A stretch of 64,000 bases of DNA, taken from NCBI GenBank assembly GCA_045107005.1, contig JBGCFP010000101.1, positions 1,374 to 65,373 of the forward strand, read 5' to 3'. The translations under genes were made by a program, and so were the position numbers. Source of the DNA: Gammaproteobacteria bacterium. Lineage in GTDB: Bacteria > Pseudomonadota > Gammaproteobacteria > Steroidobacterales > JBCCMA01. Under the pieces are notes generated by a model. It saw nothing but the letters and a program-made list of their open reading frames with translations. It ran no database searches and was not told where the DNA came from. Position 1 is the first letter of the stretch; each line of letters begins with the position of its first letter. This document shows, in pieces, positions 23,836-59,427 of the stretch.

Positions 23836-24057
23836 GTTTTTCCAAAAATAGTCGTGATTATGGAAGCCGCGCGCACCGGGTATCCGTTACCGGGCAAGGC
23901 ATGCTCAGCGCTCAGTACCGGAGTATATCAGGCTCGCTTTGCCCGCACGCCGCCGGCTAATGATAGCCGGGGCATAACAGGTCGAAATGGCGAAGGTGGG
24001 GCAGAAAATCCGAAACGACTATTTTCCGGGCCAGCGCTGGTCTGACCCCGAGCTTGA

Positions 24058-33479: not shown

Positions 33480-33508
33480 GTTACTGTTTATTTTTGTGGT
33501 CGTGCGTG

Positions 33509-33842
33509 AGATGGGGTCAGACCAACGCTCGGACTGAATATATAGAGCGTGTGTCTTTAAAATCTCATTTCGAGACCTTAGATCCGTTTTTCAGGACCTA
33601 AAACCCACTCTAAGGGACTCGAGACGAGGATCCACGCCGATGGGACTCCAGACAAATACGCGACGCCACCACCGCTTAGAATCTATTTTTAGGTCCTGAA
33701 TCGCATTCTTAAGCGCCAAAAACAGATCGTAAGCCGATTGCTACTTATAGATTAGATTCAGAGGTGGTCTGACCCCGACCATCGCCGACCATCGTAGATT
33801 CAGAGGTGGTCTGACCCCGACCATCAACTGACCCCGACCATC
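33509..33842. repeat. MITE-like element, family B, with iterated subterminal repeats
   Basis: The left end is atggggtcagaccaac (33511-33526). The right end has agattcagaggtggtctgaccccgaccatc twice (33754-33783 and 33796-33825) plus a partial ctgaccccgaccatc (33828-33842). An internal 14-bp inverted repeat ttttaggtcctgaa joins 33587-33603 and 33686-33700. No ORF is present. Confidence 0.6.
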
Positions 33843-33915
33843 AAAAAACCAGACACGAGCGCGTTGCGCAGCGTCTCAATCCCAAGGGGGTGACGCCGTA
33901 GTAACGACAGACACT

Positions 33916-36622: not shown

Positions 36623-36900
36623 TGCGAATCTCCAGTTCCAGCTATTCTTATCGTGTAGCGGCAGGTGTCACGAGAACTGAAGGGGAGCGACAAGGGAATG
36701 GTACTGCCAACTTAACTGGCTGGTGTGCCACCTCGTCTAGACAGCTGATAGCTTCCCATTGGACCGGCCACGATCCGGTAGGCACTTCCAGGCTATTCTT
36801 TGGGCTGAGCAGGCTTCGCCAACCGGATGCGACGATGGAGAATCGCCTCATCCGATATCGGTGCCGGTGAGTGGAATTGGAGACAGACCGCGGCTTTCCC

Positions 36901-37107
36901 CTACGGATTCAGCCCACTTGGCCCGGGCGCGCCGAAGAAGCTGGCTCGCAGCAAACCAAGGTCCTGCGCATTCACGATGCCGTCGCCGTTCAGGTCGGCA
37001 TCCTCGTCGGCGGCGAAAAACACCGAGCGCATCAGGCCGAGATCGACCACGTTGATCACGCCATCGTTGTTTAGATCGGCGTTGCACAGGTTGCCAAAGC
37101 CGTCACC
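36901..37107 (-). pseudogene. 5'-truncated gene retaining only the TSP3/dockerin-like cassette
   Basis: GDGFGNLCNADLNNDGVINVVDLGLMRSVFFAADEDADLNGDGIVNAQDLGLLRASFFGAPGPSGLNP-stop. Homology stops at 37107, where the IS256 fragment begins. The rest of the 156-aa ORF is read-through into the IS. Confidence 0.7.
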
Positions 37108-45400: not shown

Positions 45401-46897
45401 GCGGCCGTCTTTCATCAGCAGCGACGTCGAGTGGTAGTTACGCGGAATGGAAATAGAATCCACGACGCGCCAAGTGTTGGATTGCGGACTGTAAATTTCC
45501 GCGGGGAAAATCGAACCGCCGTCGAAAAAGTTTTGACCCGATACGTTGCCGCCAATCACCAGTACCTCGCCGTTCGGCAACGTGACCGAGTTACTCAATG
45601 CACGCGGATAGTTCATCGGCGCACCTTGCGTAATCACCGGCGCCGGGCCGTTTAGGTCCGCCAGAAAGACGTTGGTTACCAAGGTTCTTTCGGTTTCGCG
45701 CGGGTCCATCCCGCCAATCAGCATAACTTTGCCCACGTCGTAGGTGACCACGTTGCCCCATTTTCTCGCGCGCGAGCCCGTCGGCTGTCCAAAGTCCTGA
45801 TTGTTGGCGCCGCTCACCGGATCAAAACTGTGCAATGTGGGCGTGGGCCCGCCGTGGAAAACACGACCGTTTGGCTGCACCGCAAGCTGGGGGAACCACT
45901 CCAAACCACCAATGCTGTTGTGCTCGTCGAGCAGCGTTTGCATGGTCGCGTTCGGCGTGCGGATCCAGCGGTTCTCCAGTGGATCGTATTTCTCCGAGCG
46001 ATTGCCGGCCGACTTGCCGAACGTCGCGAAGATCTGGTTGTTGGGCAGCGTTACACTGGTGGCGTACCAACGCAGGTCAAACATATTGGGTAGCGCCGAC
46101 CAATTCATGTTGGTCGGGTTAAAGGTGCTGGTGCGGCGATCGTCCGGGTTACCGCCCGACGCGACGATGCGACCGTCTTCCAGTGTCGCGACGCCGGCAC
46201 AAAACATGTCGTGGAAATTATTGTCGATGCTGGAGAACGTCTGGGTCACAGGATCAAAAATCGACGAATGGGTAAATTCACGATTGGCCGGGAAAGAGTC
46301 CGTCTCGGTGGAGGACCAGGTCAGCACGCGACCGTCGGGCAGGTTCGCAGCGGAGATCGCGATGTGCGGCCACTGAATAACCGGACCCCACTGGCCAAAT
46401 TCGGCGATGTCCGCCACTTCCAATTCACCGTTGGCCGGAATCGGCAAGAAGCCGCCACTGGATGCGCGGTAAAAGACGTCCAGCACTTCGCCGCCGCCTT
46501 TCTCAAAAAACTCGACGCGCAAATCGTAGACGCCGGGATTCAGAAATACCTGGCCGCTGACGGTGACTGGCGCGTGCAAGCCATCGTTGTCCACTACCAT
46601 CGCACCGTCAATATACAAGCGCGAGCCGTCGTCCGATGTCGTTTGAAACGCGTAGGTGTCGGCCGCGGAGACGGTGATTTGATTGGTGAACACCAAACCA
46701 AACGTCTCAACCTGAGTGGTCACGCCAAGCGTAATAACGTCGCTGGTCCCACTGGCTATCGGAGACAGCGTCGTGAAATCAGGCAGCTGATTGAAGTCAC
46801 CATCGTAGACGGAGTAATTGAATTGTGAAAACGCAAACGGGGCGTAAGCGAAGACACCGAAGAGAACCAGAGCTTTGAGCTCGCTCAATTTATTCAT
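39458..46897 (-). CDS. Giant secreted multidomain protein: PA14, galactose-oxidase-like copper radical oxidase, TSP3 arrays, PA14, MAM/LamG-like, beta-propeller, di-haem CCP/MauG-like, PA14, MAM/LamG-like
   Basis: ATG at 46897 follows AAGGG and gives signal peptide MNKLSELKALVLFGVFAYAPFAFSQ (2479 aa). Oxidase motifs are HDMFCAG, RNYHSTSLLMKDGRVLSAGGG and NHLDGQIFTPPYLY. Haem motifs are CASCH (41927-41941) and CGTCH (41531-41545). Three PA14-like blocks and many DxDxDGxGDxxDxFPNDP repeats are present. Confidence 0.9.
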   Translation of the reverse strand: MNKLSELKALVLFGVFAYAPFAFSQFNYSVYDGDFNQLPDFTTLSPIASGTSDVITLGVTTQVETFGLVFTNQITVSAADTYAFQTTSDDGSRLYIDGAMVVDNDGLHAPVTVSGQVFLNPGVYDLRVEFFEKGGGEVLDVFYRASSGGFLPIPANGELEVADIAEFGQWGPVIQWPHIAISAANLPDGRVLTWSSTETDSFPANREFTHSSIFDPVTQTFSSIDNNFHDMFCAGVATLEDGRIVASGGNPDDRRTSTFNPTNMNWSALPNMFDLRWYATSVTLPNNQIFATFGKSAGNRSEKYDPLENRWIRTPNATMQTLLDEHNSIGGLEWFPQLAVQPNGRVFHGGPTPTLHSFDPVSGANNQDFGQPTGSRARKWGNVVTYDVGKVMLIGGMDPRETERTLVTNVFLADLNGPAPVITQGAPMNYPRALSNSVTLPNGEVLVIGGNVSGQNFFDGGSIFPAEIYSPQSNTWRVVDSISIPRNYHSTSLLMKDGRVLSAGGGACGTGCAANHLDGQIFTPPYLYNDDGSPASRPALSNVPPIIGTGGTFTVAAGADTVRFSMVRLSATTHHVNTDQRYLPVSSVNNGDGTFTLTLNANPNVLIAGNYWLFAVNDNDTPSIGQTIQVQRSFTDSDGDGYADSEDAFPNDPTEWRDSDSDGVGDNADVFPNDPNETTDSDGDGVGDNGDAFPNDPAESADTDGDGVGDNADAFPNDPTETMDSDGDGLGDNADPYPNDPTRPILDSDGDGVPDRFDLFPNDPNRSAGVWREVFTGIAGNAVTDLTNSANYPDNPATVEQMTSFEGPTDVLDNYGTRMRGILFAPETGSYTFWVAGDDNVQLNLSSNFNPANKTEIASVPGWSGSREWTKFPEQSSATIQLIAGEAYYLEALHKEGAGGDNLAVAWQRPSDNTITVIGGQFFDTDSDGDGVPDSLDAFPNDPTETMDSDGDGIGDNADPTPFGNVLFADDFETNSGWTRNPNGTDTATTGLWEAANAEETGNGLVMQTADAASGAQYLVTEGSAGAGLGTNDIDNGTTSIRSPSINLPSSTPIDLSFQYYLAHLTNATTDDFLRVQVVGSSTVTVLEVLGNTTDAGAAWQQANVNLDSFAGQSIYLLVSAADAAGGSLIEAGIDDIKLTAADAVDSDGDGVPDNLDAFPNDPTETTDTDGDGVGDNADVFPNDPTESADSDGDGVGDNADAFPNDPTETVDTDGDGVGDNSDAFPNDPTETLDSDGDGYGDNSDSTPTGGSNIVALPTAPRNSTTLLVENSSGSDRIWNVNPDNDSVSVSSADGSLIQQIDVGEKPWSLAKAPSATRIFVANKADANITIINTATLAVESTVALPYGSQPHGLVFNNSGSEYFVVLEALATVQKRDAATQALISEIQLSGMPRHIAMTYDDAKLLVSNFITPPVPGEATVDINFAGGGAQVFSVDPATMSLSNTIALTHDNRPTSESQGPGLPNYLNAPVIAFDNTFAFVPSKKDNIDSGLLRGNFGMTFDQTVRSNVSRIELATETEGTLRIDFDNASLGTGAAITGGNRYLLVALETSRELGVFDILNGFEVMRLPTGRAPQGVALSSDGSKAYVHNFMDRSVSRFDLAEMIETDLPATNVLGTTDVVSNEALSAPVFLGKQLFYDAEDDRLAHDNYMSCASCHNDGGEDGRVWDMTSFGEGLRNTIELNGRAATGHGFLHWSANFDELQDFEGQIRTLSAGSGLMSDADFFAGTRNEPLGDTKAGFSSDLDALAAYLASLNEFDESPYRNQDGSLTTAGAAGKLVFEASGCGTCHGGTRFTNSQDATTLTDIGTINASSGERLGGPLTGIDVPTLRDVWKTAPYLHDGSAPTLAVAVTAHDGNTVSGADLTNLVAYLEQIGREEGVAFVDSDGDGVPDEDDAFPNDPTETADSDGDGVGDNADVFPNDPTETTDTDGDGVGDNGDAFPNDPTESVDSDGDGVGNNADAFPNDPTETTDTDGDGVGDNGDAFPNDPNESADTDGDGVGDNADAFPSDPAETTDTDGDGVGDNGDAFPNDPTETVDSDSDGVGDNADAFPNDPTETADSDGDGIGDNADPYPNDPDRPNQDSDGDGVADNIDLFPNDPTRSAGIWRDVFTGIGGVAVADLTNSANFPDNPALLEELASFEGPINVLDNYGSRLRGIFFAPESGSYTFWVSGDDNVQLNLSTDSSAANKVEIASVPGWTTSRLWTKYPQQQSASIELVAGEAYYLEVLHKEAGGGDNVAVAWQRPSNGTLTVIGTEYFAQDSDGDGVADHLDAFPNDPTETLDSDGDGIGDNSDPTPFGDQLFIDDFEGASLWMRNPNGTDSATTGLWEQANAQATTISGVAYQLDNAVSGTNYLVTGGNAGSSAGVDDIDNGVTSMRSPEIVLPAGASSELSFSYYFAHYDNGTTDDFLRVKVVGSNTQTVFEELGASNIDGGAWQEAVVDLSSFAGQTVYILVEAADAGVPSLIEAGIDDVRVTAQ
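40596..41248 (-). repeat. Tandem 66-nt (22-codon) thrombospondin type-3-like repeat array, ~10 units
   Basis: The coding repeat is DSDGDGVGDNADAFPNDPTETT, iterated. The antisense frames give artefactual S/P-rich ORFs. Confidence 0.85.
43158..43466 (-). repeat. Tandem 66-nt TSP3-like repeat array, ~5 units
   Basis: Same unit as the array at 40596-41248. Confidence 0.85.
44603..44992 (-). repeat. Tandem 66-nt TSP3-like repeat array, ~6 units
   Basis: Same unit as the array at 40596-41248. Confidence 0.85.
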
Positions 46898-47181
46898 TGT
46901 TGACCCTTGGCAGTCGGACAAATGAGTGCTGTTATGAATCTGACGCTTCTACAGCAACGGCTTGTTGGTGGCCCACGATCTTGGTCGCGGTGCTTTATAT
47001 AAGTATAGACGCAGCAATATTCGTGCCGGGGCCGGAGTTGTTCGCTGATTGTCTAAATGAAACAAAGGCTTAAGCGATATGGCATAACCTCTTCATTTGA
47101 CTAATTTCGAAGTGGGCAACCGGCGAATCCGCAACTGGAAGAATTTTCGACGGCTTGGTGCAGCGCGCGAGGTATCAATGT

Positions 47182-47928
47182 GGTGTTGACAACTAAACTC
47201 CGTCGGAGCCAAAACCGCTTTCGCCCAGATTTAAGCTGCTGCTCTGCTCCATTCCGCGTACGCACTTGTCCTGAGATCACGGTAGTGATTGGCAGCTACC
47301 AAGTGCCTCCCAAGATTGAACAAATTGTAAACAGCAGCATGAGCAATCAGAAATCGCTGGCCCTGTTTGACCGATTTGAATCTTCGCATTACTTCTTCTC
47401 GGGCTCTCGTCGGTTGATGCGACAGTTCAGCTCGGTTGTTGGCGTATTGCGATCTGTCATGGATCGCATCGGGTATGAGCTCTCTGTGCGCGACATCGTA
47501 GCTCCGCAATTTGTCGGTCACAATCTTCCTTGGCTCGCCACCGTGGCTTCGCGGAAGGCGCTTGAAGAAACTCTTTGCGGCACTGCCGTCTCTGCGAGAC
47601 TGAAGAAACACATCAACCACTTCGCCATCCTGGTCCACCGCACGCCAGAGGTAGTGCTGCTTGCCATTCATACGCACGAAGGCTTCGTCGATGAAAAACG
47701 TATCGCCGTACCCGCGATGGTTTTGCTTCAGTCGCCGAGCAAACTTCCGACCAAACTTGTTGCACCAGAGGAGTATTGATTCGCCACTTACTGTAATTCC
47801 ACGCTCAGCCAGCATGTCTTCAATGTCGCGATAGCTGAGATTGAAGCGAAAATACAGCCAAACAGCGTAACTGATGATGCTTGGCGGGAATCTGTGGCGC
47901 TTGTACGTGTGGCTAGCCCCGTCATAAT
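47182..47928 (-). mobile_element. IS6-family element, transposase N-terminally disrupted
   Basis: The ORF 47231..47815 and its in-frame upstream extension read ...YKRHRFPPSIISYAVWLYFRFNLSYRDIEDMLAERGITVS...DEAFVRMNGKQHYLWRAVDQDGEVVD...YANNRAELSHQPTRAREE..., which has an IS6/IS26-like DDE layout. No in-frame start exists, since the nearest ATG is in another frame. The IS3 element abuts at 47929. Confidence 0.75.
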
Positions 47929-47972
47929 TGGTCCAGTTGCTATGTTAGTGTTTCTCGACGCAGGAGAAACCA

Positions 47973-48266
47973 ATGAAAGGAAAGCGATTTACAGACGAGC
48001 AAGTCATTCGGATTTTGCAAGAAGCCGAAGCGGGACTGTCAGTGGCGGATGTTTGCCGGAAGCACAACTGTTCGGAGCAGTCATTTTATCGCTGGAAAGC
48101 AAAGTTCGGTGGCATGGAAGTGTCTGAGGCAAAGCGGCTCAAGGAAATGGAGCGCGAGAACGCGGAGCTGAAGAAGATTGTGGCAGAGCAAACGCTGGAT
48201 ATCCGTATGCTCAAAGACGTCAACAGTCGAAGGTGGTGGGCCTGGCGGAGCGGCGGCGCTGCGTAA
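47973..48266 (+). CDS. IS3-family transposase OrfA (HTH)
   Basis: MKGKRFTDEQVIRILQEAEAGLSVADVCRKHNCSEQSFYRWKAKFGGMEVSEAKRLKEMERENAELKK is a classic IS3/IS407-group OrfA. Confidence 0.85.
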   Translation: MKGKRFTDEQVIRILQEAEAGLSVADVCRKHNCSEQSFYRWKAKFGGMEVSEAKRLKEMERENAELKKIVAEQTLDIRMLKDVNSRRWWAWRSGGAA

Positions 48267-49093
48267 TGTACTTGCGAGAGCATTACGACATCAGCGAACG
48301 GCGCGCCTGCCAGGCCATGCAGATTAACCGCTCGAGCTATCGTTACGTTGGTCAGCGCACGTTGATCGATGCGGGCTATAAGGAAGTGCTTCGATTGTCT
48401 GATGCTTATCGGTAGTTTGGCTATCGAAAGATCTACGACTTGATGCGCGAGAGCTGGTCAATCAGCCGAGAAAGGGTGCGCTTAATCCGTCGTCGAGAGG
48501 GCTTGCAGGTCGTGAAAAAGCGTCGTAAACGTCGGGTACTGAGTATGACAACGCAGTGGGTGAACCAGGCTCGATATCCCAATCATGTCTGGAGTTACGA
48601 CTTTGTTTTTGATCGCACGGATGATGCACGGCAACTGAAGTGCATGACGGTCGTTGATGAGTTTACGAGACAGGGGTTTGAAATAACGGTGGGTCGCAGT
48701 TTGACCGCGGCGGACGTTACCCGGATTCTCGGCAAACTCTTTGAGCAGCACGGGCGCCCAGTTTGCCTGCGTAGCGACAATGGCCCGGAAATGGTATCGA
48801 CCAAGGTCCAGGACTGGCTCAAGGAAAAGCATGTTGATACGCACTACATTGATCCGGGTAGCCCTTGGCAAAACGCGTACTGTGAGAGCTTCAACTCTAT
48901 CTTCCGGAGCACGTGCTTGGATCGATGGCTGTTCGGCTCAATGACCGAAGCGCGAGTGATCATCAAAAGCTGGCTTAATGAATACAACACGGTAAGGCCG
49001 CATGGATCGCTGGGCGGGCTGAACCCGAAGCAATTTCTACAGCGATGGGTTAGCAAAAATACGATTCAAAAACCCGAAACTCTAACAGCGTGA
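48233..49093 (+). pseudogene. IS3-family transposase OrfB (rve/DDE) with an in-frame TAG
   Basis: 48233..48415 and 48440..49093 share one frame (-1 relative to orfA), interrupted by TAG at 48413-48415 (AYR-stop-FGYRKIYDLM). The DDE region is WSYDFVFDRT...LRSDNGPEM...PGSPWQNAYCESFN. Confidence 0.75.
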
Positions 49094-49101
49094 GTGGACC
49101 A

Positions 49102-49330
49102 GAAATCTCGGGCTTGCCAGACGCAGTATCCGATCAATGATCACAGGCCGCACGATGCAGGCGATGATCCTGACTTCACCGCCGCCGTGTTGGCACACTT
49201 CAACGTCAATTCGGAACGCGCGCTTGAGGCGTTCGGCCCAGGTCAGATTGTTACGATTGCCGGGCTTTAGCGTGAATGCCTCCGCGGACGAGCCGCGCGA
49301 GACCTCCGATGACAAGGTGCCTGAGCGCAA
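49102..49330 (-). mobile_element. IS91-family transposase C-terminal remnant
   Basis: LTWAERLKRAFRIDVEVCQHGGGEVRIIACIVRPVIIDRILRL resembles the conserved C-terminal tail of IS91/IS801 transposases. The fragment abuts the IS3 end. Confidence 0.5.
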
Positions 49331-49518: not shown

Positions 49519-50448
49519 TCAATCACACGCGTTCGTCAACGCACTTGGGCCGGGCGACTGAAAGAAGCGGCTGCGGAGTTCGCCCAAATCCGCGACATTG
49601 ACAATTCGATCGTTATTGAAGTCTGCATTGAGGTCATTCGAAAAAAACACCTTCCGTAGCAGGCCCAGGTCTGCAGCGTTCGTCACACAGTCGTTATTCA
49701 GATCGGTGTCACAGGCGTTTCCGAAACCATCACTATCGGCATCCCGTTGGCTCGTATTTGACGTGACAACGCAATTGTCCTCGCTGTCGAGGAAACCGTC
49801 GCCATCAGCATCGTTGTCCGGCGAAAATATATCCGCTTCATTGAAGAAAAAATACTGGCTGCCGGTAAAGTTGCCTGAATATTCTGTAGCCGTGGTCTGC
49901 CAGTGCGTATTGTTGAAAACCCAAGAACCGATATCGTTATTTGCTTCCCAATAGAGCAGTGATCCAAGGCCTGACAGCTCGGGCACCGAAAAATCCAGTG
50001 CAATAAGGGCCAGGATGTTATTCGAACCGGGAATAAAACCTGAAAACGCCTCGACCAGAATGCCGGAGACCAGCAACTGAGGTTCATCAATGCCTAACTC
50101 AGGAATCGTACCGCGTAGAAAAAACGCGCCGCCGATTGCTTCACCATCGTTATTCACGATGGCATTCAGCGTCGCCTGGGTCGTCACTTCGATCGACACA
50201 ACGACGCCACCAATAGACAGCCCTGTCCCATTGCAGTCACCAGTCTGAGACCACAGAAACGTAGACGCGTTGTATGAGCCGTCCGACGAGCAGCTCGACG
50301 AGCCACCTATATTACCGGTTGAAGTGCCGCGCTGAACACTTGTGAGCGGCATGAAGCCAGAGGCCCCATCTGCCATTGCCATGTTGGCGACAAGAGTAAA
50401 TACCGACACTCCAATTAGTGCGGTTAATGCGAACACGGATCTCAACAT
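49519..50448 (-). CDS. Secreted protein with a C-terminal TSP3 + dockerin-like cassette
   Basis: ATG at 50448 follows GAAGGA and gives signal peptide MLRSVFALTALIGVSVFTLVANMAMA. The cassette is at 49522-49818. I do not recognise the N-terminal domain. Confidence 0.85.
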   Translation of the reverse strand: MLRSVFALTALIGVSVFTLVANMAMADGASGFMPLTSVQRGTSTGNIGGSSSCSSDGSYNASTFLWSQTGDCNGTGLSIGGVVVSIEVTTQATLNAIVNNDGEAIGGAFFLRGTIPELGIDEPQLLVSGILVEAFSGFIPGSNNILALIALDFSVPELSGLGSLLYWEANNDIGSWVFNNTHWQTTATEYSGNFTGSQYFFFNEADIFSPDNDADGDGFLDSEDNCVVTSNTSQRDADSDGFGNACDTDLNNDCVTNAADLGLLRKVFFSNDLNADFNNDRIVNVADLGELRSRFFQSPGPSALTNACD

Positions 50449-50670
50449 TGAATGTTCCTTCAAGATTGCTTGGCAAGGTCTGAGCAGAGAACAGGACGCA
50501 TAAACACCCTACCCGAAGTAGTGCAAACAAGGGATAGATCCGAACAACGAGCGGAAGTTGCGATTCGTCGGACGGGCGTTTGGTAGGCGAGGCCAGGTGA
50601 GTGTAGTGGTCAACACGCGAAACGTTGCAAAGCTGGAGTCAGTTTAAGGCATCAAAGCAATCAGGGTGAA

Positions 50671-50970
50671 CTTTTGGTGCCGAACTTTTGGTGCCGGTCA
50701 TAACCTCATGACTATTGGTGCCGGTCACAACTTTAGAACACTTCATCCTCCGCGAATTATTCTGAAGTTGGGGCTTTGAGTGCCAGTCCAAGACAGTGCC
50801 CTAAGTTATAGTGTTATGACCGGCACCCGATCCCGTAAGTTATATTGTTATGACCGGCACCCGATCTCTTCGATCTCCTGACCGGCACCCGATCTCCTCT
50901 AAGTTATATTGTTATGACCGGCACCCGATCTCCTTGTTATGACCGGCACCCGATCTCGGCACCCGATCTC
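50671..50970. repeat. MITE-like element, family A, copy 1
   Basis: The left end has ttggtgccggtcataac (50688-50704), ttggtgccggtcacaac (50716-50732) and a partial at 50674-50685. The right end has gttatgaccggcacccgatc at 50813, 50847, 50911 and 50936, plus partials at 50878 and 50958. No ORF is present. Confidence 0.65.
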
Positions 50971-51081
50971 CCGAGTTGGGGCATCGAAATCTCTGGTCAA
51001 GAATCGATAGACTTCGAGCCGAGCGGTAAAAGCGGCCGGCCGTGACGGGCGCGGTGCTTTTACCGCCTTGTTGTGAGCGGT

Positions 51082-52086
51082 CTACGGCGCTGCAGAACAA
51101 CCGTTGGGTTGGCCGCTCGGTCCTGGCGGTTGCAAGAAGCGCGTGCGCAGGATACCAAGATCAGCCACATTGACCGATCCGTCACTGTTAAAGTCGGCAG
51201 CCGGGTCGGCGCTGAAAAACACGCTGCGGAAGAGCCCCAGGTCCACCACGTTGGTCACGCAGTCATTGTTCAGGTCGGTATCGCACAAGTTGCCGATGCC
51301 GTCGGCGTCGCCGTCAATCTGGTCAGCATTGGCGACCAGCGTGCAGTTGTCACTAACGTCCGCCACACCGTCATTGTCGGTATCCACGTCGCCGGTCAGG
51401 CCGTAGCGCAGCATGCCGTCAGCGGATAACGTCCACGCGCGCTCGAAGTCCCGCTCGGAGAACTCGCCACCGGAGAACTGATCAAACTCGCGCGCGTAAA
51501 ACGCCAGGGTTTCGCCAACGGTTGCACCGGTCGAAAAGAGTACGACCGAGCCCAGCGATTCGTTAAATGTAGCCGGATTGGTGTAAAACCCGTTGCTGGC
51601 GGGCAGCTCGATCGTGCTCGACAGATTTTCCGCCGGATCCGTGGTGCCAGCCGCCATGTCGTGCGCGGCGGTGAACATCGAAACGGCTGAGTGAATCGCC
51701 TGCAGACTCGTCAGCGGGTCGGTGGGAAAATCAATCGTCGGGCTATTGCTCGTCGTGAACACCGTCAAGAAGCCGCCAAACGAAAAGTTCTCCACGCCGA
51801 CAACCGAGTAGCGCAGATCGCCGGCAGCACTGTCGCCGAACGTGTTGAGGTACAGATCGTCCGGTGAAAATTCGAAGTCGAAATTGCTGAACTGGAAAGC
51901 ATTGAGCGTAATACCGAGATCTCTTGTGTAGGTGATGCCGCGCGACGAATCGTGCACGGTCAGGAACATCTCCGCTGCCGGATCGTCAATGTCCCCCTCG
52001 GTAACGATGGCCGCGGAGGCGCCAGCCGACAGGGCGAGGGTGGTGAGCAGGGTACCGGTCTGCAGCAGGGCTTTGGTTTTTTTCAT
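51082..52086 (-). CDS. Secreted protein with a C-terminal TSP3 + dockerin-like cassette
   Basis: 334 aa with signal peptide MKKTKALLQTGTLLTTLALSAGASAA. The cassette is at 51085-51390. I do not recognise the N-terminal domain. Confidence 0.85.
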   Translation of the reverse strand: MKKTKALLQTGTLLTTLALSAGASAAIVTEGDIDDPAAEMFLTVHDSSRGITYTRDLGITLNAFQFSNFDFEFSPDDLYLNTFGDSAAGDLRYSVVGVENFSFGGFLTVFTTSNSPTIDFPTDPLTSLQAIHSAVSMFTAAHDMAAGTTDPAENLSSTIELPASNGFYTNPATFNESLGSVVLFSTGATVGETLAFYAREFDQFSGGEFSERDFERAWTLSADGMLRYGLTGDVDTDNDGVADVSDNCTLVANADQIDGDADGIGNLCDTDLNNDCVTNVVDLGLFRSVFFSADPAADFNSDGSVNVADLGILRTRFLQPPGPSGQPNGCSAAP

Positions 52087-52825
52087 GATGTTTGTACTCA
52101 GTCTTGCTTGTGTCTACCAGGAAAATGCATTGAGTGGGCTCCAAAAGTCGCGCGAATATAGCGGCTCGATTTAGCCATCGCAACAGGCGATTTACATAAG
52201 CACTTTAGCGGTAACTCAAGATCAACCGCGGTGAACGGAAACCGAAATCCGGCGGTGCCATTCGATCTGTGCAAAGTGTTAGCGAGTCGCTACGAGCCCG
52301 TGCTCTGTTGCGACCAAATATACGCCGCAGCAACGTCCCTGAACCAGTGTTGACTCGTGATCGATTTGTGATTCGCGAAGCGTTGGGCAGCTGAAGGCTT
52401 ATACAGGACGGCACGCGCGTTGTGCCTGGCGTTCGTCGGGAGCTTGGGCCAGCAACTCAATGCCGGGCCCTTTGCCGCTTCTTGGTCATCAACTGGCGAC
52501 AATTTTCTGGCGTGCGCGTCGGCGTAGCGAAAACTCGGGGCGAAAAAAAGCAGGCTTGACGCCAGTGCTTGAACCATTTTCAACATGTAGCCGGGTGCCG
52601 GTCATAACTTTATCACTTATTTCTTGTCATTTGGCGCGCCGCCGTTTCTGGCGATTGCGGATTGAACGGGGACAAAAAAAGCGGGTTCCTTCCCCTGTGC
52701 CCAAACAAGTTATCAGATGCCGAACGGGTTGGAATGCCCCCGTTCTTTGGCCGCTTAGCTTGTTAGGCTTTCAGTTTTTTACGTAGTCCAAAATACGCGA
52801 TCTCTGGCGTGATGTAGTCTTGGAC

Positions 52826-53078
52826 ACGTGGTGCCGGACACGTGGTGCCGGTCATAACTTCATAACACTTCATCCACTGCCAGTGATTCTGATTTTGAGG
52901 CTTTGGATGCCGTTTCAGGACCGTGTCCTAAGTTATATTGTTATGACCGGCACCCGATTTGTTGCATGCCGTTCCAGGACCGTGTCCTAAGTTATATTGT
53001 TATGACCGGCACCCGATTTGTTGTTATGACCGGCACCCGATTTGGGCACCCGATTTGTTATGACCGACACCCGATTTG
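52826..53078. repeat. MITE-like element, family A, copy 2 (same orientation as copy 1)
   Basis: The left end has gtggtgccggaca (52829-52840) and gtggtgccggtcataac (52843-52858). The right end has gttatgaccggcacccgattt at 52940, 53000, 53023 and 53057, plus a partial at 53044. It includes a ~60-bp unit duplicated in tandem (52909-52968 and 52969-53019). A solo left-end motif lies at 52593-52610. Confidence 0.65.
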
Positions 53079-53085
53079 TGGCTAT

Positions 53086-53367
53086 TTGGGCGACGGACTG
53101 GACCTGAGTTCGCACACCGCGATGGTTGACGTCGTCGCACAAGCCGGGCTGGACGCCAACAAGGCCATAGAAATTCTGGAAGGCACCGCGTTTGCCGAAA
53201 GCGTACGTGGCGATGAGCAGCAGGCGCAGCAATACGGCATCACAGGCGTTCCCTTTTTTCTGATTGGGCGTTATGGCGTATCGGGCGCGCAAGAGGCAAC
53301 GACGCTGGCGGATGCCATTCGGCAGGTTGGCGCTGACGGACCGCCGCCAGCCGAACCGCCCGCATAG
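53086..53367 (+). pseudogene. 3' remnant of a DsbA/FrnE-family thiol oxidoreductase gene
   Basis: ...AQAGLDANKAIEILEGTAFAESVRGDEQQAQQYGITGVPFFLIGRYGVSGAQEATTLADAIRQV matches the C-terminal third of DsbA-like (FrnE/HCCA isomerase type) proteins. The CxxC-bearing N-terminus is absent, and homology begins exactly at the end of repeat copy 2. Confidence 0.6.
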
Positions 53368-53485
53368 ATCCAATCTAGCCACTACGATGGCACTTGTTCG
53401 TGTGTTTTACTCTATCGTTACAAACACAGTCGGTTAGCTCGGCTGTATCCTGTTGCAGTCTGTCCCACATTAATCAGGAGCGAAA

Positions 53486-56068
53486 ATGACGATCACAAGG
53501 CACACAAAAATAGCGTGCGCGGCAGTGCTGGTCATGGTCGCAATCGCGTGGTATCTGCAACCTCAAAACAGTGCGCCCGCACCGGCGTATGCCGGGCCCG
53601 ATCTGGCGCCCGGCGATTGGGTGCTCGCGCGTCGGTTTGCAGGCAGTGAACTGAGCCAGGCACGTCTGCGTACGATTGACAGCGACTATTTGGCCTTGCG
53701 CGCCACCACGGCCCAGCGCGCGCCGCGCGCGGCCGCTTCTGCGTGGTCGTTTCTCGGACCCGTGAACATCGGTGGCCGCGTTCTCGACATTGCCGTCGAT
53801 CCGCAACTGCCCGATACCCTTTTCATCGCCAGCGCCAGCGGCGGGGTTTGGAAAAGCACCGACGCCGGCGACACATTTGACTCCGCGTGGCCCGCTGCGA
53901 ATGCGCAGGCCATTGGCGCGCTGGCGATCACCAGCGGCGGGCTGCTCTACGCCGGTACCGGGGAATCGGGGCCCGGCGGCGGCAGCCCCACGTTTGGCAA
54001 TCAGGGCGTCTTTCGATCGGCGGATCGTGGCGCCAGCTGGACCAACATTGGCTTGACCTTAAGCGACCGGATCAGTCGCGTTGTAATTGATCCCAACAAC
54101 GAACAACGACTTTTTGTGGCGGCGACCGGTCCGGTCTACGCCCCGGGTGGCGAACGCGGCGTGTTTCGCAGCGTTGACGGTGGCGACAGTTGGCAACTGG
54201 TGCTGCCCGGTGCCAACGCCACAACCGGGGCATCCGACGTTTACATCGATCCTGTGAACCCGGATCGCGTATACGCGGTGCTGTGGGATCATTTGCGTCA
54301 ACCGTCGCTGCGCCGCTACGGCGGCGTTGGCTCGGGCCTGTTCCGTAGCCTCGACGGCGGCGATACGTGGACGCGACTGGCGAGTGGATTGCCTGGCGCC
54401 GCGCCAGACGTGGGTCGTATTGCACTGGGTGTCGCTCCAACGAATCCCGACAGGCTGTACGCCACCTACTCGGACGATCTGGGCTTCTTCACCACTTTCT
54501 ATGTGTCCGTTAATGGCGGCGACACCTGGGTCGCGAGGCCGTTCAGCCAGGACCTCGCCGATTCACAGGGCCGCGGTGCGTACTGGTACGCAAGGCTATG
54601 GATTGACCCGATGGACGAGACACGTGTATTCAGTGCGGGCGTCCCGTTGCTGCGATCAAGCGATGCGGGAATGAACTGGACAGTCGATTTCAGCGTCCAT
54701 GTCGATCATCACGCGATGGCGTGGGACAGCAAAACCCCAGGCCGGGTTTATCTTGGCAACGACGGTGGCGTGTATCGCTCTGAAAACAACGGCACAGATG
54801 GCTGGGTGTTTGGCAGCGTGCAGCCTTTCACGCAGTTCTACGCCATGGACGTGAGCGAGAGCAATCCGCAGCGCGTGCTGGGCGGCACTCAGGACAATCG
54901 CTGCGTGCGTTCCTACTCGCAGAGCAATCCCGATGACTGGAACCAATGGGGGTTTTGCGGCGATGGCCTGGAGCAGCTCGTCAATCCGTTGGATGACAAC
55001 GTGATTTACGGTTGCAGTCAGTACGGCAATTGCTTGCGCTCGATCAACGGGGGCGAGACCGTGTTTCAGCTCGGTTCGACAGCGCAGCTAAGACGCAATT
55101 GGCAGACGCCATTGGCCTTCGATCCCAGCGATCCAAGTGTAATGTACTACGCCGGGGAGCGGGTCAATCGGTCGGTGGATGGCGGCGGCAGCTGGGCAAC
55201 CATTAGCTCGGACCTGACCGGCGGCGATCCGTTTCCGACACCGATTGACTACTATCCGTTCGGCACCATCACCACGCTGGCAGCCGCAAAGAGCGATCCG
55301 AATACCATCTATGTCGGCACCGACGACTCGCGCCTATGGGTGACGCAGGACCTGGGCCAAAGCTGGACGCAATCCACCGGTAGCAACCTGCCGCAGCGCT
55401 GGGTCACCAAAGTGCTGGTCGACCCTGTCGATGCCAGCGTGGCCTACGCCGCGTATTCGGGTTTTCGCAACGGTGACGACACGCCGTACATCTTTAAGAC
55501 CATCGACGCCGGCTTTACCTGGACTGACATCACCGGCGATTTGCCCGGCGCGCCGATCAATTCACTTGCACTCACCCAGTCGGGCACGCTGATTGCTGGC
55601 AGTGATATTGGCGTGTTCGCGACCATCGATGGCGGCACCAGCTGGAACGTCGTCGGGCAAGACTTGCCACAGGTACCGGTGTTCGACCTGCGCATGCACG
55701 AGCCCTCTGCGACCTTGTTCGCTGCTACTTTCGGCCGCGGCATTTGGAGCGTGCCACTCGTCGCAGAAGACAGCGACGCCGACGGTGTGACGAACGCCAT
55801 CGACAACTGCAGCGAGTTCGCCAATCCCGCACAGGTCGATAGCGACGGCGACAACTACGGCAATGGTTGCGACGCAGATTTCAACAACGACTGCCAGGTA
55901 AATATTATTGATCTTGGCGAGTTTCGCCAAGGGTTCTTCGGCCCGGATCTGGAATTCGACCTGACCGGCGACGGGGCGGTAAACGCTGCTGATCTGGGAC
56001 GTCTGCGGTTACTTTTTTTCCAACCCGTCGGTCCAAGCGGACTGAGCAAAGCGTGTGTTCCTGACTAG
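53486..56068 (+). CDS. Secreted BNR/Asp-box beta-propeller (sortilin-Vps10-like) protein with a C-terminal TSP3 + dockerin-like cassette
   Basis: 860 aa with an N-terminal signal/anchor after AGGAG. At least nine Asp-boxes are present (SADRGASW, SVDGGDSW, SLDGGDTW, SVNGGDTW, SSDAGMNW, SVDGGGSW, TQDLGQSW, TIDAGFTW, TIDGGTSW). The cassette is at 55766-56065. Confidence 0.9.
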   Translation: MTITRHTKIACAAVLVMVAIAWYLQPQNSAPAPAYAGPDLAPGDWVLARRFAGSELSQARLRTIDSDYLALRATTAQRAPRAAASAWSFLGPVNIGGRVLDIAVDPQLPDTLFIASASGGVWKSTDAGDTFDSAWPAANAQAIGALAITSGGLLYAGTGESGPGGGSPTFGNQGVFRSADRGASWTNIGLTLSDRISRVVIDPNNEQRLFVAATGPVYAPGGERGVFRSVDGGDSWQLVLPGANATTGASDVYIDPVNPDRVYAVLWDHLRQPSLRRYGGVGSGLFRSLDGGDTWTRLASGLPGAAPDVGRIALGVAPTNPDRLYATYSDDLGFFTTFYVSVNGGDTWVARPFSQDLADSQGRGAYWYARLWIDPMDETRVFSAGVPLLRSSDAGMNWTVDFSVHVDHHAMAWDSKTPGRVYLGNDGGVYRSENNGTDGWVFGSVQPFTQFYAMDVSESNPQRVLGGTQDNRCVRSYSQSNPDDWNQWGFCGDGLEQLVNPLDDNVIYGCSQYGNCLRSINGGETVFQLGSTAQLRRNWQTPLAFDPSDPSVMYYAGERVNRSVDGGGSWATISSDLTGGDPFPTPIDYYPFGTITTLAAAKSDPNTIYVGTDDSRLWVTQDLGQSWTQSTGSNLPQRWVTKVLVDPVDASVAYAAYSGFRNGDDTPYIFKTIDAGFTWTDITGDLPGAPINSLALTQSGTLIAGSDIGVFATIDGGTSWNVVGQDLPQVPVFDLRMHEPSATLFAATFGRGIWSVPLVAEDSDADGVTNAIDNCSEFANPAQVDSDGDNYGNGCDADFNNDCQVNIIDLGEFRQGFFGPDLEFDLTGDGAVNAADLGRLRLLFFQPVGPSGLSKACVPD

Positions 56069-56386
56069 ATCGGCCTCTGCAAGGGCGCTGTCTCGCGTAG
56101 AGAGCCTCACCGTGAAGGTGGCCGACGCAAAGAACAACATTCTTGCTGATATTGCCTTCAACACTTAAACAGGTTGCAGGCGACCGTTACTACGGGCGAG
56201 ATGAAGGCACCAAAAAATGTGGCCGATATGCGCCATCCTATGCGGCCCCCAAACCAACCAGGAAGCACGAAGACCGACCCGAACAGGAATAGCGCCTGCT
56301 GGCCGCGATCCTCGATGGGCGGATGCATCCCCATGGGCAGTGCCATGACCGTGATCGAGCCGTAAACGCCCCCGAAGACGGTGTCG

Positions 56387-56602
56387 TCAATTTGGCGTGT
56401 CGCTGCTGCCATCTGGCCATTTCGCGTCATAGTGCGACCCATCGCAAAAAGGCTTGTTGTTCGACAACCCACAGCGGCAGAGCGAATACTTGGCGCGGGA
56501 TGCGCCCTCACCGTTGAACTCCGCATTGAGGGTGACGTTGGTGACGTGGAAGGGCCCGTCCTTTTCAACCTCGATGCCCAGAAAATAGGAAGCATAAACG
56601 TC
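56387..56602 (-). CDS. CDGSH iron-sulfur domain protein (no canonical start codon in frame)
   Basis: A 71-codon open frame reads ...GIEVEKDGPFHVTNVTLNAEFNGEGASRAKYSLCRCGLSNNKPFCDGSHYDAKW..., with a complete C-x-C-x2-S-x3-P-x-C-D-G-S-H signature. It is hidden in an alternative frame of the 202-aa ORF 56158..56766. The nearest ATG is out of frame. Confidence 0.5.
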   Translation of the reverse strand, partial: DVYASYFLGIEVEKDGPFHVTNVTLNAEFNGEGASRAKYSLCRCGLSNNKPFCDGSHYDAKWPDGSSDTPN

Positions 56603-56820
56603 CTACACGAAGTATCGCAAACGATCGCTTGATCTGAACAAAGAGTGGAAGTTGCGATTCGGATTTCTGGCGCACCGAGGTTTAGCTCGGGATCAAACGA
56701 CGCATGGCCGATCCAGCCGCCGACTAGCCCACCAACAATGACGCTAATCAACCCTGCCGCTTCCATAGTCTTTCCTCGACGTGTAATTCGTTGGCAATGA
56801 ACAGTGAAAGACAGCGCGTG

Positions 56821-59427
56821 CTACGGCCACGCACCTAGATTTTTCAAATCTTCAATTTCAATTAGCGAGTCCGGTACGCCGTCGCCATTCTTATCGTTAT
56901 CGCATTCATCGCCAACCCCGTCGCCATCTTGATCCTGATGCCCGCTCATACTGTAGATATCCGGACATTTGTCGCACGCGTCGCCACGCAGGTCGCCATC
57001 CTTATTGAACTGAAACGTGTTGGGTTGAGAAACGCAGTTGTCGCTGAGGTCCGGCACGCCATCGCCATCTGAATCGGCTCGATGTCTGACAAGCAACGCC
57101 TCGATGTCGAGATTTTCGCGATGGGAAAACGTGATGTTGTGGCGTCCAGCCTCAAGCACCCGGGTTCTGCCCAGCGATGTTGCGGAGGTCGCCCAGCTCC
57201 AAACCAGTGGCGTGTTGCCGGCCATCGACCACGGTAATGGCACCCCACCGTCTACGGTCATGAAAACAGAATCACAGCAAGGACCGTCAGTGCGTGAAAG
57301 CAATCGAAATTCGTAGACACCCGTACGTACAATGTCGATGTCAAAGTCCAGCCTGTCGGCCGCATCGTCCAACGTCACATACTGATCTTCAATTGGAATC
57401 GTGGTCCCGGGCTGCGTGTGGGCGATGACGTCGACCGACAGCGAGCGACGCGCCTCGGTAGCCAATATCAGCATCTCGCAATCATCACCCTGACAATCGG
57501 CGCGCAGACGAGAGCGCTCGGCTCTGCGGATAGGCAGCTGATGTGTCGTGAGAATGCGCGCTTTGTCACAGTCGTGATTCCAACCCAGGCAGTGGTGGTT
57601 GAGGGTCGCAAGGACTCGCTGATAGTCCAGAGCGCCAATATCGCCATCAATCAAAAAGCGAGAATATCGCCATGACACGAAATCGAAGAATTTGACCATG
57701 TCATGGTGATCGCGCATTTTGCGAATGGCTGAGGTAAACGCGATGTTTGCCAAGCGCACAGCATCCGGATTTTCTTCAATGATCGTTTGGGACTGCGAAC
57801 ACCAGACGCCCGACTGACTACGATAGCCCGTACGGCATTCATTCCATGCAAGCTCCCAGTAAATCGAGGCCAGCACGTCACCGCATGCGTGGGGCGAAGA
57901 CGCAGAATCCGGTGAGCAGACCCGCGAATCACGATCGTAAACCAAATGGCCAAGACCAAAGGTGTCGTGCGTACTGGGCGTCGCGATTCCCCCTGAATGA
58001 TGCCCATACTCAAGGTGCGTGCCATCGTCGTAATTCAGTTCGCTCATCTCGTCAAAGGGACGATTGGCATTTTCCTGAAATCTGAACAGGGCATAGCGCA
58101 GTAGGTTGTGGTCAGCAAAGCCCTCGTCGACCGCCCGTCCGCGCAAGCTGGTGGGTGTACGGTCATACATGAAATGAATGATGTGGCCAAATTCGTGCGC
58201 CATAGAGCTTAGTGAAAAAGCACTGCCCGTGATGGTCGGAAGCAAAATTTTGTACTCAGTCATCCCTGACTTGGCACATGCAGAAGCCAAACCGGGACAC
58301 AGTCCTGAGGGAGCGACAATCACCCGCAGATTCTCCGGGTCGTAAGATCGCCAGGGATAACGCGCGTCGTACGCTGCGTTGGGATGACGTGAAAATTGCG
58401 AGAGGTCGTGGAGCCAGAAATAGGCATTCACGGCATCGTCTGCGATGCCCTCGGCCGATGGCGCAAATCGAAACACCGAGTCGCTGTCGCAATCCCGTCG
58501 CAGTCGAAACGTCGTTGAGCCGTCAGGCCGATACTTGCCGTCCACTTTGATGCCGACTTTGGGCTCCCCCTGATCATGGCTCGATCCGTGATCCAAAGAG
58601 AACAGGCAGTCATCTGCGTTCACGCGGCGCGTTACCTGCACACCGCTTTGTCTCGATCCACTGCGCGCGCTCAACCGATTGTCATAGGCGGCATGCACAA
58701 CATTTTGGTCAACCAATGCGTGATTTTCGTAGGTCAGATCATCGGTCGCTACAATTTGCCGCAACCGTTCATTGATCAGATGCCGAATATGATCCTCATC
58801 GCTGGGCGCCACGCGGAGCATCAATGCGCCCTCAGTGGGATCAAAATATCGTTTATCGACAACGACCGTGTGCCCGAGTCGTTTCTCTACCCATTGCAGC
58901 GCTTCGCGCTCGCTGGAAAACGATGTGATGTCGTCCGCAGCGCTCACCTCCGTTGCGGTTGCCGCACGCCCGATCACTTCCAACACGTTGCCCTGCGCGT
59001 CAAACGTCAGCTCGAGCTCTGTGCCAAGAACCGGGTGACCGCGAACCTCCTGCACCGTCAGAATCTCTCGATAGCCATCCTCATCCGTCACGTCCCGAAC
59101 CAGCTTTCTTGGCAGCAACCGCGATGCATCGTCGACACGCCAAAGCTCGGCAGCGAGAAATTGCGCCACGCAGTCGGCGAGCGCGACGGCGTCGCGGGGC
59201 AGGTCGCCATTGACGGCACAACCGGTACCGATGGCACCCGCGGCGAGATACGTCGCATTGCCGTTTTCGTCGGTGGCGGTATAAAAAACCTCGGGACGCT
59301 CAGCCTCAAGCCGGGTTAGCAGCGCGTCGCCGACGCTATCGGGCCGCGATGCGGACTGGTGGGCGCAACTCGTGCAAAGCACTACGGTCAGCGAGATGAT
59401 CTTGATCAGGTTTCTCGTAAACATCAT
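56821..59427 (-). CDS. Secreted thermolysin-like (gluzincin) zinc metalloprotease with C-terminal TSP3 repeats
   Basis: 868 aa with signal/lipoprotein-like MMFTRNLIKIISLTVVLCTSC. HEFGH lies at 58183-58197, and VDEGFADH 20 residues later supplies the third-ligand Glu. The N-terminal pro-region looks PepSY/FTP-like. The C-terminus has DSDGDGVPDLSDNC...QDQDGDGVGDECD. Confidence 0.85.
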   Translation of the reverse strand: MMFTRNLIKIISLTVVLCTSCAHQSASRPDSVGDALLTRLEAERPEVFYTATDENGNATYLAAGAIGTGCAVNGDLPRDAVALADCVAQFLAAELWRVDDASRLLPRKLVRDVTDEDGYREILTVQEVRGHPVLGTELELTFDAQGNVLEVIGRAATATEVSAADDITSFSSEREALQWVEKRLGHTVVVDKRYFDPTEGALMLRVAPSDEDHIRHLINERLRQIVATDDLTYENHALVDQNVVHAAYDNRLSARSGSRQSGVQVTRRVNADDCLFSLDHGSSHDQGEPKVGIKVDGKYRPDGSTTFRLRRDCDSDSVFRFAPSAEGIADDAVNAYFWLHDLSQFSRHPNAAYDARYPWRSYDPENLRVIVAPSGLCPGLASACAKSGMTEYKILLPTITGSAFSLSSMAHEFGHIIHFMYDRTPTSLRGRAVDEGFADHNLLRYALFRFQENANRPFDEMSELNYDDGTHLEYGHHSGGIATPSTHDTFGLGHLVYDRDSRVCSPDSASSPHACGDVLASIYWELAWNECRTGYRSQSGVWCSQSQTIIEENPDAVRLANIAFTSAIRKMRDHHDMVKFFDFVSWRYSRFLIDGDIGALDYQRVLATLNHHCLGWNHDCDKARILTTHQLPIRRAERSRLRADCQGDDCEMLILATEARRSLSVDVIAHTQPGTTIPIEDQYVTLDDAADRLDFDIDIVRTGVYEFRLLSRTDGPCCDSVFMTVDGGVPLPWSMAGNTPLVWSWATSATSLGRTRVLEAGRHNITFSHRENLDIEALLVRHRADSDGDGVPDLSDNCVSQPNTFQFNKDGDLRGDACDKCPDIYSMSGHQDQDGDGVGDECDNDKNGDGVPDSLIEIEDLKNLGAWP

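Follow-up and report, generated by a model that had tools for sequence, protein, structure and literature searches.

In pseudo-compound transposons of the IS26 type, direct copies of an IS6-family element, each with its transposase and 14-bp GGCAC... inverted repeats, bracket a DNA segment, no target-site duplication is made and a neighboring gene is cut at the boundary. REPINs are doublets of repetitive extragenic palindromic (REP) sequences that form a hairpin and are mobilized by the RAYT, a Y1 transposase, and their excision leaves about 6 bp of invariant end (Bertels & Rainey 2011, PMC3116915). The present analysis concerns a locus that recalls parts of both, situated in a 64-kb stretch of a gammaproteobacterial contig (JBGCFP010000101.1; the whole 64,000-nucleotide stretch is called the window, and all positions refer to it), where two non-coding blocks of about 300 bp, J1 and J2, lie some 2 kb apart around a gene for a secreted protein. 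J1 and J2 are probably diverged copies of one small non-autonomous inverted-repeat element of the class that comprises the REPINs and the miniature inverted-repeat transposable elements (MITEs), moved by an enzyme acting in trans. A more distant copy in the same window is called F2, and L-numbers denote public contigs.

The two copies are marked by a 15-mer, GTTATGACCGGCACC, which at up to two mismatches has 12 matches in the window, all inside 50690-53071, against a chance level of 0.05 matches in shuffled sequence, with no shuffle reaching 12. The 15-mer is one part of a bipartite full site of about 28 nt (TAAGTTAT..GTTATGACCGGCACC); the conserved core of the element family is TGACCGGCACC, and the conserved interior segment is TCTNATTTNGAGNCNTTNGATCCGTTTTTCAGGACC. 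J1 and J2 stand in the same orientation and align from 50668/52822 to 50970/53078 with a mean column identity of 77% (72% over 252 nt by BLAST; nhmmer E 3e-33), a 116-nt core (J1 50716-50831) being 83% identical. Their homology stops sharply on both sides, and the flanks are unrelated.

The left part of J1 carries inverted sites at 50690 (exact) and 50717 (one mismatch), each of which reaches about 28 nt as GGTGCCGGTCAYAAC..ATAAC..TT, together with a partial GGTGCCGAAC at 50676, and that of J2 carries an exact inverted site at 52844 and a partial one at 52830. The right part of J1 holds four exact 15-mers in direct orientation, a truncated CTGACCGGCACC and a minimal GGCACC, while in J2 there are three exact 15-mers, one with a single mismatch and one minimal site. 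Measured from start to start, the two members of the inner inverted pair lie 96 nt apart in J1 as well as in J2, and the inverted arms measure 23-28 nt and are 83-89% complementary. As single-stranded DNA, J1 folds with a z of -6.05, its inverted end modules pairing with each other, and J2 with a z of -6.41; a strong single-strand fold is expected of any inverted repeat. Neither copy holds an open reading frame (ORF) with a family match, and the Rfam covariance models gave zero matches at E ≤ 1 over 50300-53500. A first-pass annotation, made from the letters of the window, had described two same-orientation copies with inverted sites at the left and packed direct sites at the right, a MITE-like element, and no transposase inside or between the copies; the motif count and the alignment bear out the first of these, the second is supported insofar as this is a small, non-coding, multi-copy inverted-repeat element with sharp boundaries and unrelated flanks, and the ORFs and Pfam searches agree with the third. 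The tandem unit of about 60 bp that had been reported in the second copy is likewise present, as 2.1 copies of a 59-nt unit at 96% identity, with the small palindrome AGGACCGTGTCCT occurring twice. This palindrome is peculiar to J2, and the J1 palindrome lies in another register, for which reason a compensatory change between the two is not claimed as covariation.

The packed right-hand sites are nested units of unequal length that are anchored at the outer side, several of them below the size of a full site. In J1, the first unit runs in from the spacer and ends at 50834, after which come units of 34, 9, 19, 36, 25 and 13 nt, every right-hand unit ending in CGATC(C/T)C; in J2 the units measure 59, 59, 24, 13 and 21 nt, and each ends in CGATTTG. 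The units of one array thus have a common outer tail and differ in their inner start on a master ...CTAAGTTATATTGTTATGACCGGCACC, so that unit lengths of 9, 13, 19, 21, 24, 25, 34, 36 and 59 nt are met across the arrays and several units contain merely 6-12 nt of the core. For each of the four outermost edges, Tandem Repeats Finder reports exact (100%) duplications of 13-14 bp: at the left, 14 bp in 2.1 copies (GAACTTTTGGTGCC in J1, GGACACGTGGTGCC in J2), and at the right, 13 bp in two copies (CGGCACCCGATCT and GGCACCCGATTTG), the elements themselves running from GAACTTTTGGTGCC... to ...CGATCTCCCGAG in J1 and from GGACACGTGGTGCC... to ...CGATTTGTGGC in J2. One such duplication is composed of 6 nt of core and 7-8 nt of adjoining tail, and the tails are unlike between ends (GAACTTTT versus GGACACGT, CGATCTC versus CGATTTG).

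The left tails are mostly different between J1 and J2 and identical inside one copy, which indicates that the edge duplications arose separately, after the two copies had split. Consistent with that, identity inside the arrays is 96-100%, as against 72-83% between the copies, which points to arrays that are young and recurrent and follow no conserved design. Because the nested units are young and recur at four edges, they are read as by-products of repeated end processing, for example the element inserting anew beside its own end and then being partly excised, or alternatively slippage at a protein-bound end or abortive one-ended events. An origin of the spacer from the DsbA junction described below, or its repetition past the array, was rejected, the alignment being at chance level.

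Beyond J1 and J2, the window contains further pieces of the same kind. The first-pass annotation had listed a solo left-end motif between the two copies; the exact site is there (52594-52608, minus strand), but it looks rather like part of an inverted fragment of about 100 nt from a right-hand array, with one long unit that includes the exact core and, after it, about 70 nt similar to the beginning of a further right-hand unit. A whole-window scan for tandem repeats flagged 33811-33844 and so brought up F2, which has a single inverted site (33513-33529; terminal repeat of 17 nt at 88%), a non-coding interior of 230 nt with a perfect 14-nt inverted repeat (33590-33603 and 33687-33700), and a right array (33753-33844) of 32-, 10-, 33- and 17-nt units anchored at GACCATC. 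Its core, GGTCTGACCCCGACC, is not that of J1 and J2. In a local alignment, 33562-33598 of its interior and 52887-52922 of the J2 spacer score 31, above all of 300 shuffles (z about 5.5), and through this homology F2 and J1/J2 are taken as diverged members of one superfamily. The 13-nt palindrome of J2 sits at the position of the base of the 14-nt-stem hairpin in F2, which suggests, and would fit, an internal deletion. Exact repeats of 17, 10 and 31 nt were also seen within the F2 array. A solo site of the F2 type lies at 24039; the convergent gene 24107-25327 has its stop codon 53 nt away, and an inverted repeat of 17-bp stem separates this codon from the site, which is past the gene's end. 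In a contig of a related genome (L003), which encodes a BNR protein with 66% identity to that of the window, 166 nt at a gene 3' end are homologous to F2 (local z 5.6 and 7.2; nhmmer E 0.006) and include a hairpin with an 8-bp stem and a loop that holds the GGCACC motif (GCGTTTTC-GGTGCC-GAAAACGC). The first-pass annotation had conceded that a motif confined to this spot would amount to a local duplication; F2 and the solo site, 17-27 kb away, and the homologue in L003 place the family beyond it.

Searches of public sequence added a few relatives among many incidental matches. The 15-mer had 31 single chance matches in viral contigs; when viral sequence was scanned further for direct, inverted or L093-specific patterns, all matches were chance ones in coding sequence, BLAST against plasmids and phages gave nothing, and a literature search on the core string returned primers only. 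A two-site pattern on the 11-nt core matched more than 120 loci in metagenomes, mostly coding sequence or plain tandem repeats, as is expected for any GC-rich 11-mer in repeat-bearing DNA. From these, L093/L054, L063 and, doubtfully, L064 were kept, and L146, L159/L176, L162, L084, L090, L104 and L143 were set aside. L063 offers a unit of about 150 bp with one inverted site, about 70 nt of interior and two direct sites; the notion that it cuts a DUF433 gene was dropped, the Pfam domain being nearly complete (3-56/56). In L093/L054, a small gene is flanked by seven nested units on one side and by 19 on the opposite side, with 13-66 nt from unit to unit. The gene between them is an orphan Imm53, and a 490-bp segment with it, consisting of the gene and about 100 bp of flanks, is 98% identical to a low-GC contig (L187) that has no arrays. 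The L093 arrays begin exactly where this homology ends, from which it follows that the array tails point toward ordinary flanking sequence, which is also the case at the DsbA gene. A stub of 20 codons, MGRLARRQLGDGIYHVYNRR*, lies 55 nt off the inner (head) side of one L093 array, and we take it, as a lead only, to resemble the N-terminus of an IS200/RAYT-type Y1 transposase.

Some further observations were made on these contigs. The L093 arrays and Imm53 gene fall within an island of about 1.5 kb (5880-7400 of metagenome contig Ga0183100_1001638) with 30-40% GC in a host of 65% GC, and a 34-codon ORF ending in ..RRGRPHI* is also found on the inner side of its arrays. In L064, intergenic 28-nt units at 3239-3295 and 6338-6394 consist of a GAAA-tetraloop hairpin AACGTgaaaACGTT, AG and TGACCGGCACC; there are two units per place, 3.1 kb apart and in the same orientation, and they are either a possible relative of REP-like kind or a coincidence produced by the pattern searched for. 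The idea that array, gene and array together form a mobile unit, which L093 made attractive, survives only in the recombination-site explanation and the far-reaching proposal given below, F2, L003 and L063 being free-standing and the L093 island reaching past both arrays.

When J1, J2, F2, L003 and L063 are compared, a common plan emerges, in which one or more inverted sites (one to three on the left, each of about 28 nt) are followed by a non-coding interior of 70-230 nt and then by the same site in direct orientation, with the outer tips pointing toward normal DNA. It is this common plan, together with the sharp boundaries, the unrelated flanks and the diverged copies across the lineage, that leads us to regard J1 and J2, with somewhat better than even confidence, as copies of a non-autonomous inverted-repeat element; the family is probably undescribed and the element probably parasitic mobile DNA. 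To the same superfamily we assign the inverted fragment at 52524-52620 and, as more remote members, F2 and the solo site at 24039. An enzyme encoded outside the window would then recognize the core and move the element in trans. Within the window, no gene for an integrase, a recombinase, a TnsB/MuA-type protein, TniA, IstA or a Y1 transposase was found, the only rve/DDE domains in Pfam scans of its ORFs being those of IS3 and IS6 insertion sequences (ISs), and the RAYT signature G..YHV..RG is absent from all frames. If the element is mobile, a single-strand route by an HUH enzyme (RAYT/IS200-like) takes the largest share of that probability, short of half of it, and a DDE transposase comes second with a share only a little smaller; the HUH route is placed slightly ahead on account of the missing target-site duplication, the GGCACC in the L003 hairpin loop and the RAYT-like stub in L093, and is further favored by the features shared with REPINs that are compared below.

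Several results weigh against this interpretation. No direct repeat flanks J1, J2 or F2 under any choice of boundary, that is, no target-site duplication was found. The neighborhood is not conserved and synteny with relatives yielded no empty site, and movement of the element is a deduction. The autonomous partner that the first-pass annotation had proposed to look for, with the same ends, appeared neither in the window nor in the genome, metagenome and viral scans. An exact 19-mer gave a single chance match among 185,579 species-representative genomes (L001, in an archaeal coding sequence) and no match in the metagenome collection, and the metagenome relatives were found by the core itself, which means that their resemblance is partly selected for. 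The short tandem units may be miscounted in the assembly of a metagenome-assembled genome. Single units fold no better than shuffled sequence (z = -0.1 to -1.2), which speaks against classical REP hairpins, and for the HUH route in particular the non-palindromic units and the absence of a RAYT gene from the window are unfavorable, as is the zero score of the 20-aa L093 stub in Pfam and NCBIfam.

A more far-reaching proposal would make the elements an undescribed superfamily of bacterial hairpin or inverted-repeat elements, defined by the core TGACC..GGCACC (in a hairpin loop in some members), with ends grown by tip-anchored nested duplication, inserting in one direction past genes for secreted Ca-binding proteins, and with pairs of elements possibly carrying genes. 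In this form the proposal is unlikely. It would entail an end-processing reaction unlike those described for DDE, HUH and recombinase elements, such as repeated homing of the element to its own tip and then partial excision, and pairs of elements might carry single genes between genomes, such as Imm53 in L093.

Table 1. Coordinates of the element copies, their parts and the neighboring features in the window.
Feature	Position	Strand	Basis
Solo F2-type site, GGTCTGACCCCGAGC, 1 mismatch	24039..24053	+	motif match
F2, diverged relative, 346 bp	33505..33850	+	inverted site, interior repeat, nested array, homology to J2 spacer
IS graveyard beside J1	47231..49261	.	Pfam, NCBIfam
J1, copy 1, 303 bp	50668..50970	+	alignment with J2, nhmmer, single-strand fold
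J1 left end module	50668..50745	-	14-bp duplication GAACTTTTGGTGCC x2.1 (50668-50696); inverted sites 50690-50704, 50717-50731
J1 spacer	50746..50801	+	degenerate inverted site GTGCCAGTC (50780-50788), read off sequence
J1 right-hand nested array	50802..50970	+	tandem repeat analysis, unit cutting
Bracketed 334-aa secreted protein with TSP3/dockerin-like C-terminal module	51082..52086	-	Pfam TSP_3
Inverted fragment of third copy	52524..52620	-	28-nt arms with 89% complementarity; nhmmer E 0.027 against J2
J2, copy 2, 257 bp	52822..53078	+	alignment with J1, nhmmer, single-strand fold
J2 left end module	52822..52872	-	14-bp duplication GGACACGTGGTGCC x2.1 (52822-52851); inverted site 52844-52858
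J2 right-hand nested array	52903..53078	+	tandem repeat analysis, unit cutting
DsbA/FrnE-type thiol-disulfide oxidoreductase gene, 3' half	53074..53367	+	Pfam DSBA, PDB FrnE 5cnw

The neighbors of the two copies (Table 1) are secreted TSP3 proteins, a BNR protein and a DsbA fragment, and all copies in the window are extragenic except at the right edge of J2. There, an ORF at 52903-53367 acquires homology to DsbA/FrnE proteins from residue 58-61 onward (53074-53083), which is at the outer edge of J2, just as had been described at first pass; the Pfam DSBA match starts at residue 61 (53083) and covers profile positions 112-190 of 191, and the match to FrnE (PDB 5cnw) covers residues 133-224 of 260 (E 4e-18). 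The missing N-terminal half with its CxxC, which the same annotation had suggested looking for, was absent in every frame from the sequence on the left of J1, of J2 and of the solo site, and from the rest of the window. Most simply, the truncation is an adjacent deletion or rearrangement that stopped at the J2 edge, and it is plausible that the element itself cut the gene, although the IS debris nearby could equally have made the deletion. That debris comprises a fragment of a transposase of the IS6/IS240 type (47231-47905, minus strand), a member of the IS3 family at about 47911-49121 whose two flanks are unrelated, suggesting IS-mediated rearrangement, and the C-terminal stub of an ISCR/IS91-family (rolling-circle) transposase (49124-49261, minus strand; NCBIfam NF052416, E 2.9e-11). 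Derivation of the element from the adjacent IS3 or IS6 was rejected, neither having a similar end.

The gene bracketed by J1 and J2 had been called a cassette gene. Its homologues, at 50-60% identity, occupy ordinary chromosomal contexts without arrays (e.g., beside rpsI-rplM), so that this label is not tenable and the gene is one ordinary member of a family found across the lineage. With its left neighbor it shares the C-terminal TSP3/dockerin-like module and nothing else.

At least nine proteins of the window carry a TSP3/dockerin-type module, the nine genes being 24107-25327, 30449-31168, 33916-34947, 36901-37371, 39458-46921, 49519-50463, 51082-52086, 53486-56068 and 56821-59427. This Ca-binding module, 67-74% identical at the DNA level, is attached to otherwise unrelated secreted proteins, several of which end in ..PGPS..C, and it has the appearance of a tail for sorting or anchoring that is particular to this lineage. 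All three right-hand edges or sites with intact flanks lie 111, 71 and 53 nt past the stop codons of convergent genes with such a module (hypergeometric P about 0.006, for nine TSP3-module genes among about 45 in the window), and L003 and L093 repeat the same polarity toward gene 3' ends. In the two genes that end in ..PGPS.., this motif lies 144 and 152 nt away from the edge of the array. The 3'-flank position bias is a lead, the sample being too small for a claim of targeting. A degenerate site, CTCACCGGCACCGAT, was also noticed at 36860-36871 on the minus strand, 29 nt past the stop of the dockerin-tailed gene 36901-37371 and in an orientation opposite to the others; its two mismatches to the 12-mer are within chance expectation.

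Three further observations concern the non-coding DNA around the copies. A segment of about 96 nt at 50473-50567 is 81% identical to 56565-56661, both lying just upstream, on the minus strand, of gene starts (49519-50463 and an ORF within 56158-56766). The segment, which has no Rfam match in its first copy, may serve both genes as a leader or regulatory element. In the non-coding stretch 52609-52826, on the upstream side of gene 51082-52086, the plus strand has a GAACGGG..CCCGTTC hairpin with TTTGG after it (about 52722-52750), and two copies of CGGGG(C/A)(G/C)AAAAAAAGC(A/G)GG occur at 52536 and 52667. The hairpin and the AAAAAAAGC repeats may be remnants of other gene ends or else a small RNA.

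Among other explanations, the one implied by the first-pass description of Tn7/Mu-style multi-site ends holds that a DDE transposon similar to Tn7, Mu, Tn402 or IS21 gave rise to the element, as a MITE, and that the asymmetric ends are arrays of transposase-binding sites from which a transpososome is assembled. The right end of Tn7 faces the 3' end of glmS, in the way that the packed ends here face the 3' ends of convergent genes at the distances given above, and truncation of a gene at the element edge is typical of replicative DDE elements. The asymmetry is real, with one to three spaced inverted sites at one end and four to six packed direct sites at the other, next to the three TnsB sites at the left and four at the right of Tn7 (PMC8649781). 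The idea nevertheless seems improbable to us, inasmuch as a TnsB/MuA/TniA/IstA-like gene is found nowhere in the 64 kb, the edges of J1 and J2 lack 5'-TG(T)...(A)CA-3' tips, neither a 5-bp nor any other target-site duplication is present, and many sites are nested truncations cut to 6-12 nt of core at an irregular spacing of 9-59 nt. The 19 units at one L093 end are unlike any described Tn7 or Mu end, and arrays that are younger than the copies argue against a conserved design, so the first-pass comparison is not upheld. About as improbable is that the blocks are not mobile at all and represent binding-site arrays of a resident protein (an iteron, operator, centromere or roadblock) that arose by local duplication and grew by slippage. 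Arrays on both sides of a gene do recall iteron replicons, the exact motif is confined to a 2.4-kb stretch of the window and occurs nowhere in the public scans, and tandem duplication alone can yield nested units. A segmental duplication is contradicted by the unrelated flanks of J1 and J2, whose neighbors share only the C-terminal module; moreover, no rep, par or regulator gene is adjacent, related elements have other surroundings elsewhere in the window, in L003 and in unrelated metagenomes, and one copy adjoins a broken gene.

It is still more doubtful that the blocks of about 300 bp are site-specific recombination sites, attP-like or bounding a cassette, the genes between them being integrated modules that a tyrosine or serine recombinase, encoded at another locus, would move. 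Their size and the asymmetry of their arms recall the attP of lambda, and such a view would account for the lack of target-site duplication, for the direct orientation of the blocks around a gene, for the position of gene 51082-52086 between the J1 array and the inverted array fragment, and for the recently acquired Imm53 gene of L093 between inward-facing arrays. Yet the window has no integrase or recombinase gene, no core repeat as long as 10 nt is common to the two L093 junctions (the sole common 9-mer, AAATTACTT, belongs to the array units), and the L093 island extends past both arrays, which accordingly are not its borders. The bracketed gene has ordinary chromosomal genes as its homologues, F2, L003 and L063 are free-standing units of left end, interior and right end with no module attached, and GTTATGA does not fit the GTTRRRY box of integrons. 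Equally little probability is given to domesticated REP-like elements in 3' flanks that serve the host, by protecting transcript ends or insulating convergent genes for secreted proteins, and are not actively mobile. The position past TSP3-gene stops (all three cases, at 53-111 nt), the agreeing polarity in L003 and L093 and the inverted repeats between stop codon and array would suit such a role. They have to be set against a very small sample, the lack of an Rfam match, single units that have no significant fold, a sequence that is unconserved beyond the core, left modules that lie upstream of genes, and a J2 that adjoins a truncated gene.

Should the arrays be footprints of a reaction, they would form a record of how a transposase or nuclease handles the ends of its element, and they may lead to a new pair of enzyme and element in uncultured Gammaproteobacteria; if they are merely slippage at an ordinary MITE, they are routine genome clutter. 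The family marks hot spots of rearrangement, as seen in the broken DsbA/FrnE gene here and in the foreign immunity gene between the arrays of L093, and automated scans may take arrays of this kind for Tn7-like ends, iterons or CRISPR-like repeats.

With regard to known systems, integron cassettes, which have an IntI integrase nearby and attC sites with RYYYAAC...GTTRRRY boxes, do not offer a match, the window having no integrase and GTTATGA falling outside GTTRRRY, and neither does an iteron replicon or a partition site, there being no rep or par gene beside the repeats. An origin of ..GACCGGCACCA from the 3' end of a tRNA-Thr was dropped, the likeness extending over only about 12 nt, and a similarity of the inverted repeat to those of IS1 or IS26, at about 50% identity, was likewise not accepted as evidence. 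The locus agrees with the IS26-type structures in its direct copies, the missing duplications, the cut gene and an IS6-family transposase fragment 3 kb away, but differs from them in that its copies are without a transposase, have ends unlike that of the IS6 fragment and are only 72-83% identical. With the ends of Tn7, Mu and Tn402 it shares few spaced sites at one end and several packed, inverted ones at the other (PMC8649781), the packed end lying beside the 3' end of a gene, whereas it has no transposase of that type, no TGT/ACA tips, no 5-bp duplication and units that are unequal and truncated. Like bacterial MITEs, which are non-autonomous deletion derivatives of ISs, the elements measure less than 350 bp, have terminal inverted repeats, contain no ORF and exist as dispersed, diverged copies; unlike them, they lack a target-site duplication and an identifiable parent IS, and their ends are extended by nested duplications. 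REPINs differ in that the units here are neither palindromic nor folding and have no GTAG-type head, and in that the arrays are nested, outer-anchored truncations and not repeats of whole REPINs. In other respects REPINs resemble the present elements, both being inverted doublets that form a long hairpin across a short spacer, non-coding, mostly extragenic and near gene ends, and both being accompanied by decayed singlets and tandem clusters, with several families per genome and no target-site duplication, and the remnant of about 6 bp left by REPIN excision recalls the 6-nt GGCACC stubs seen here.

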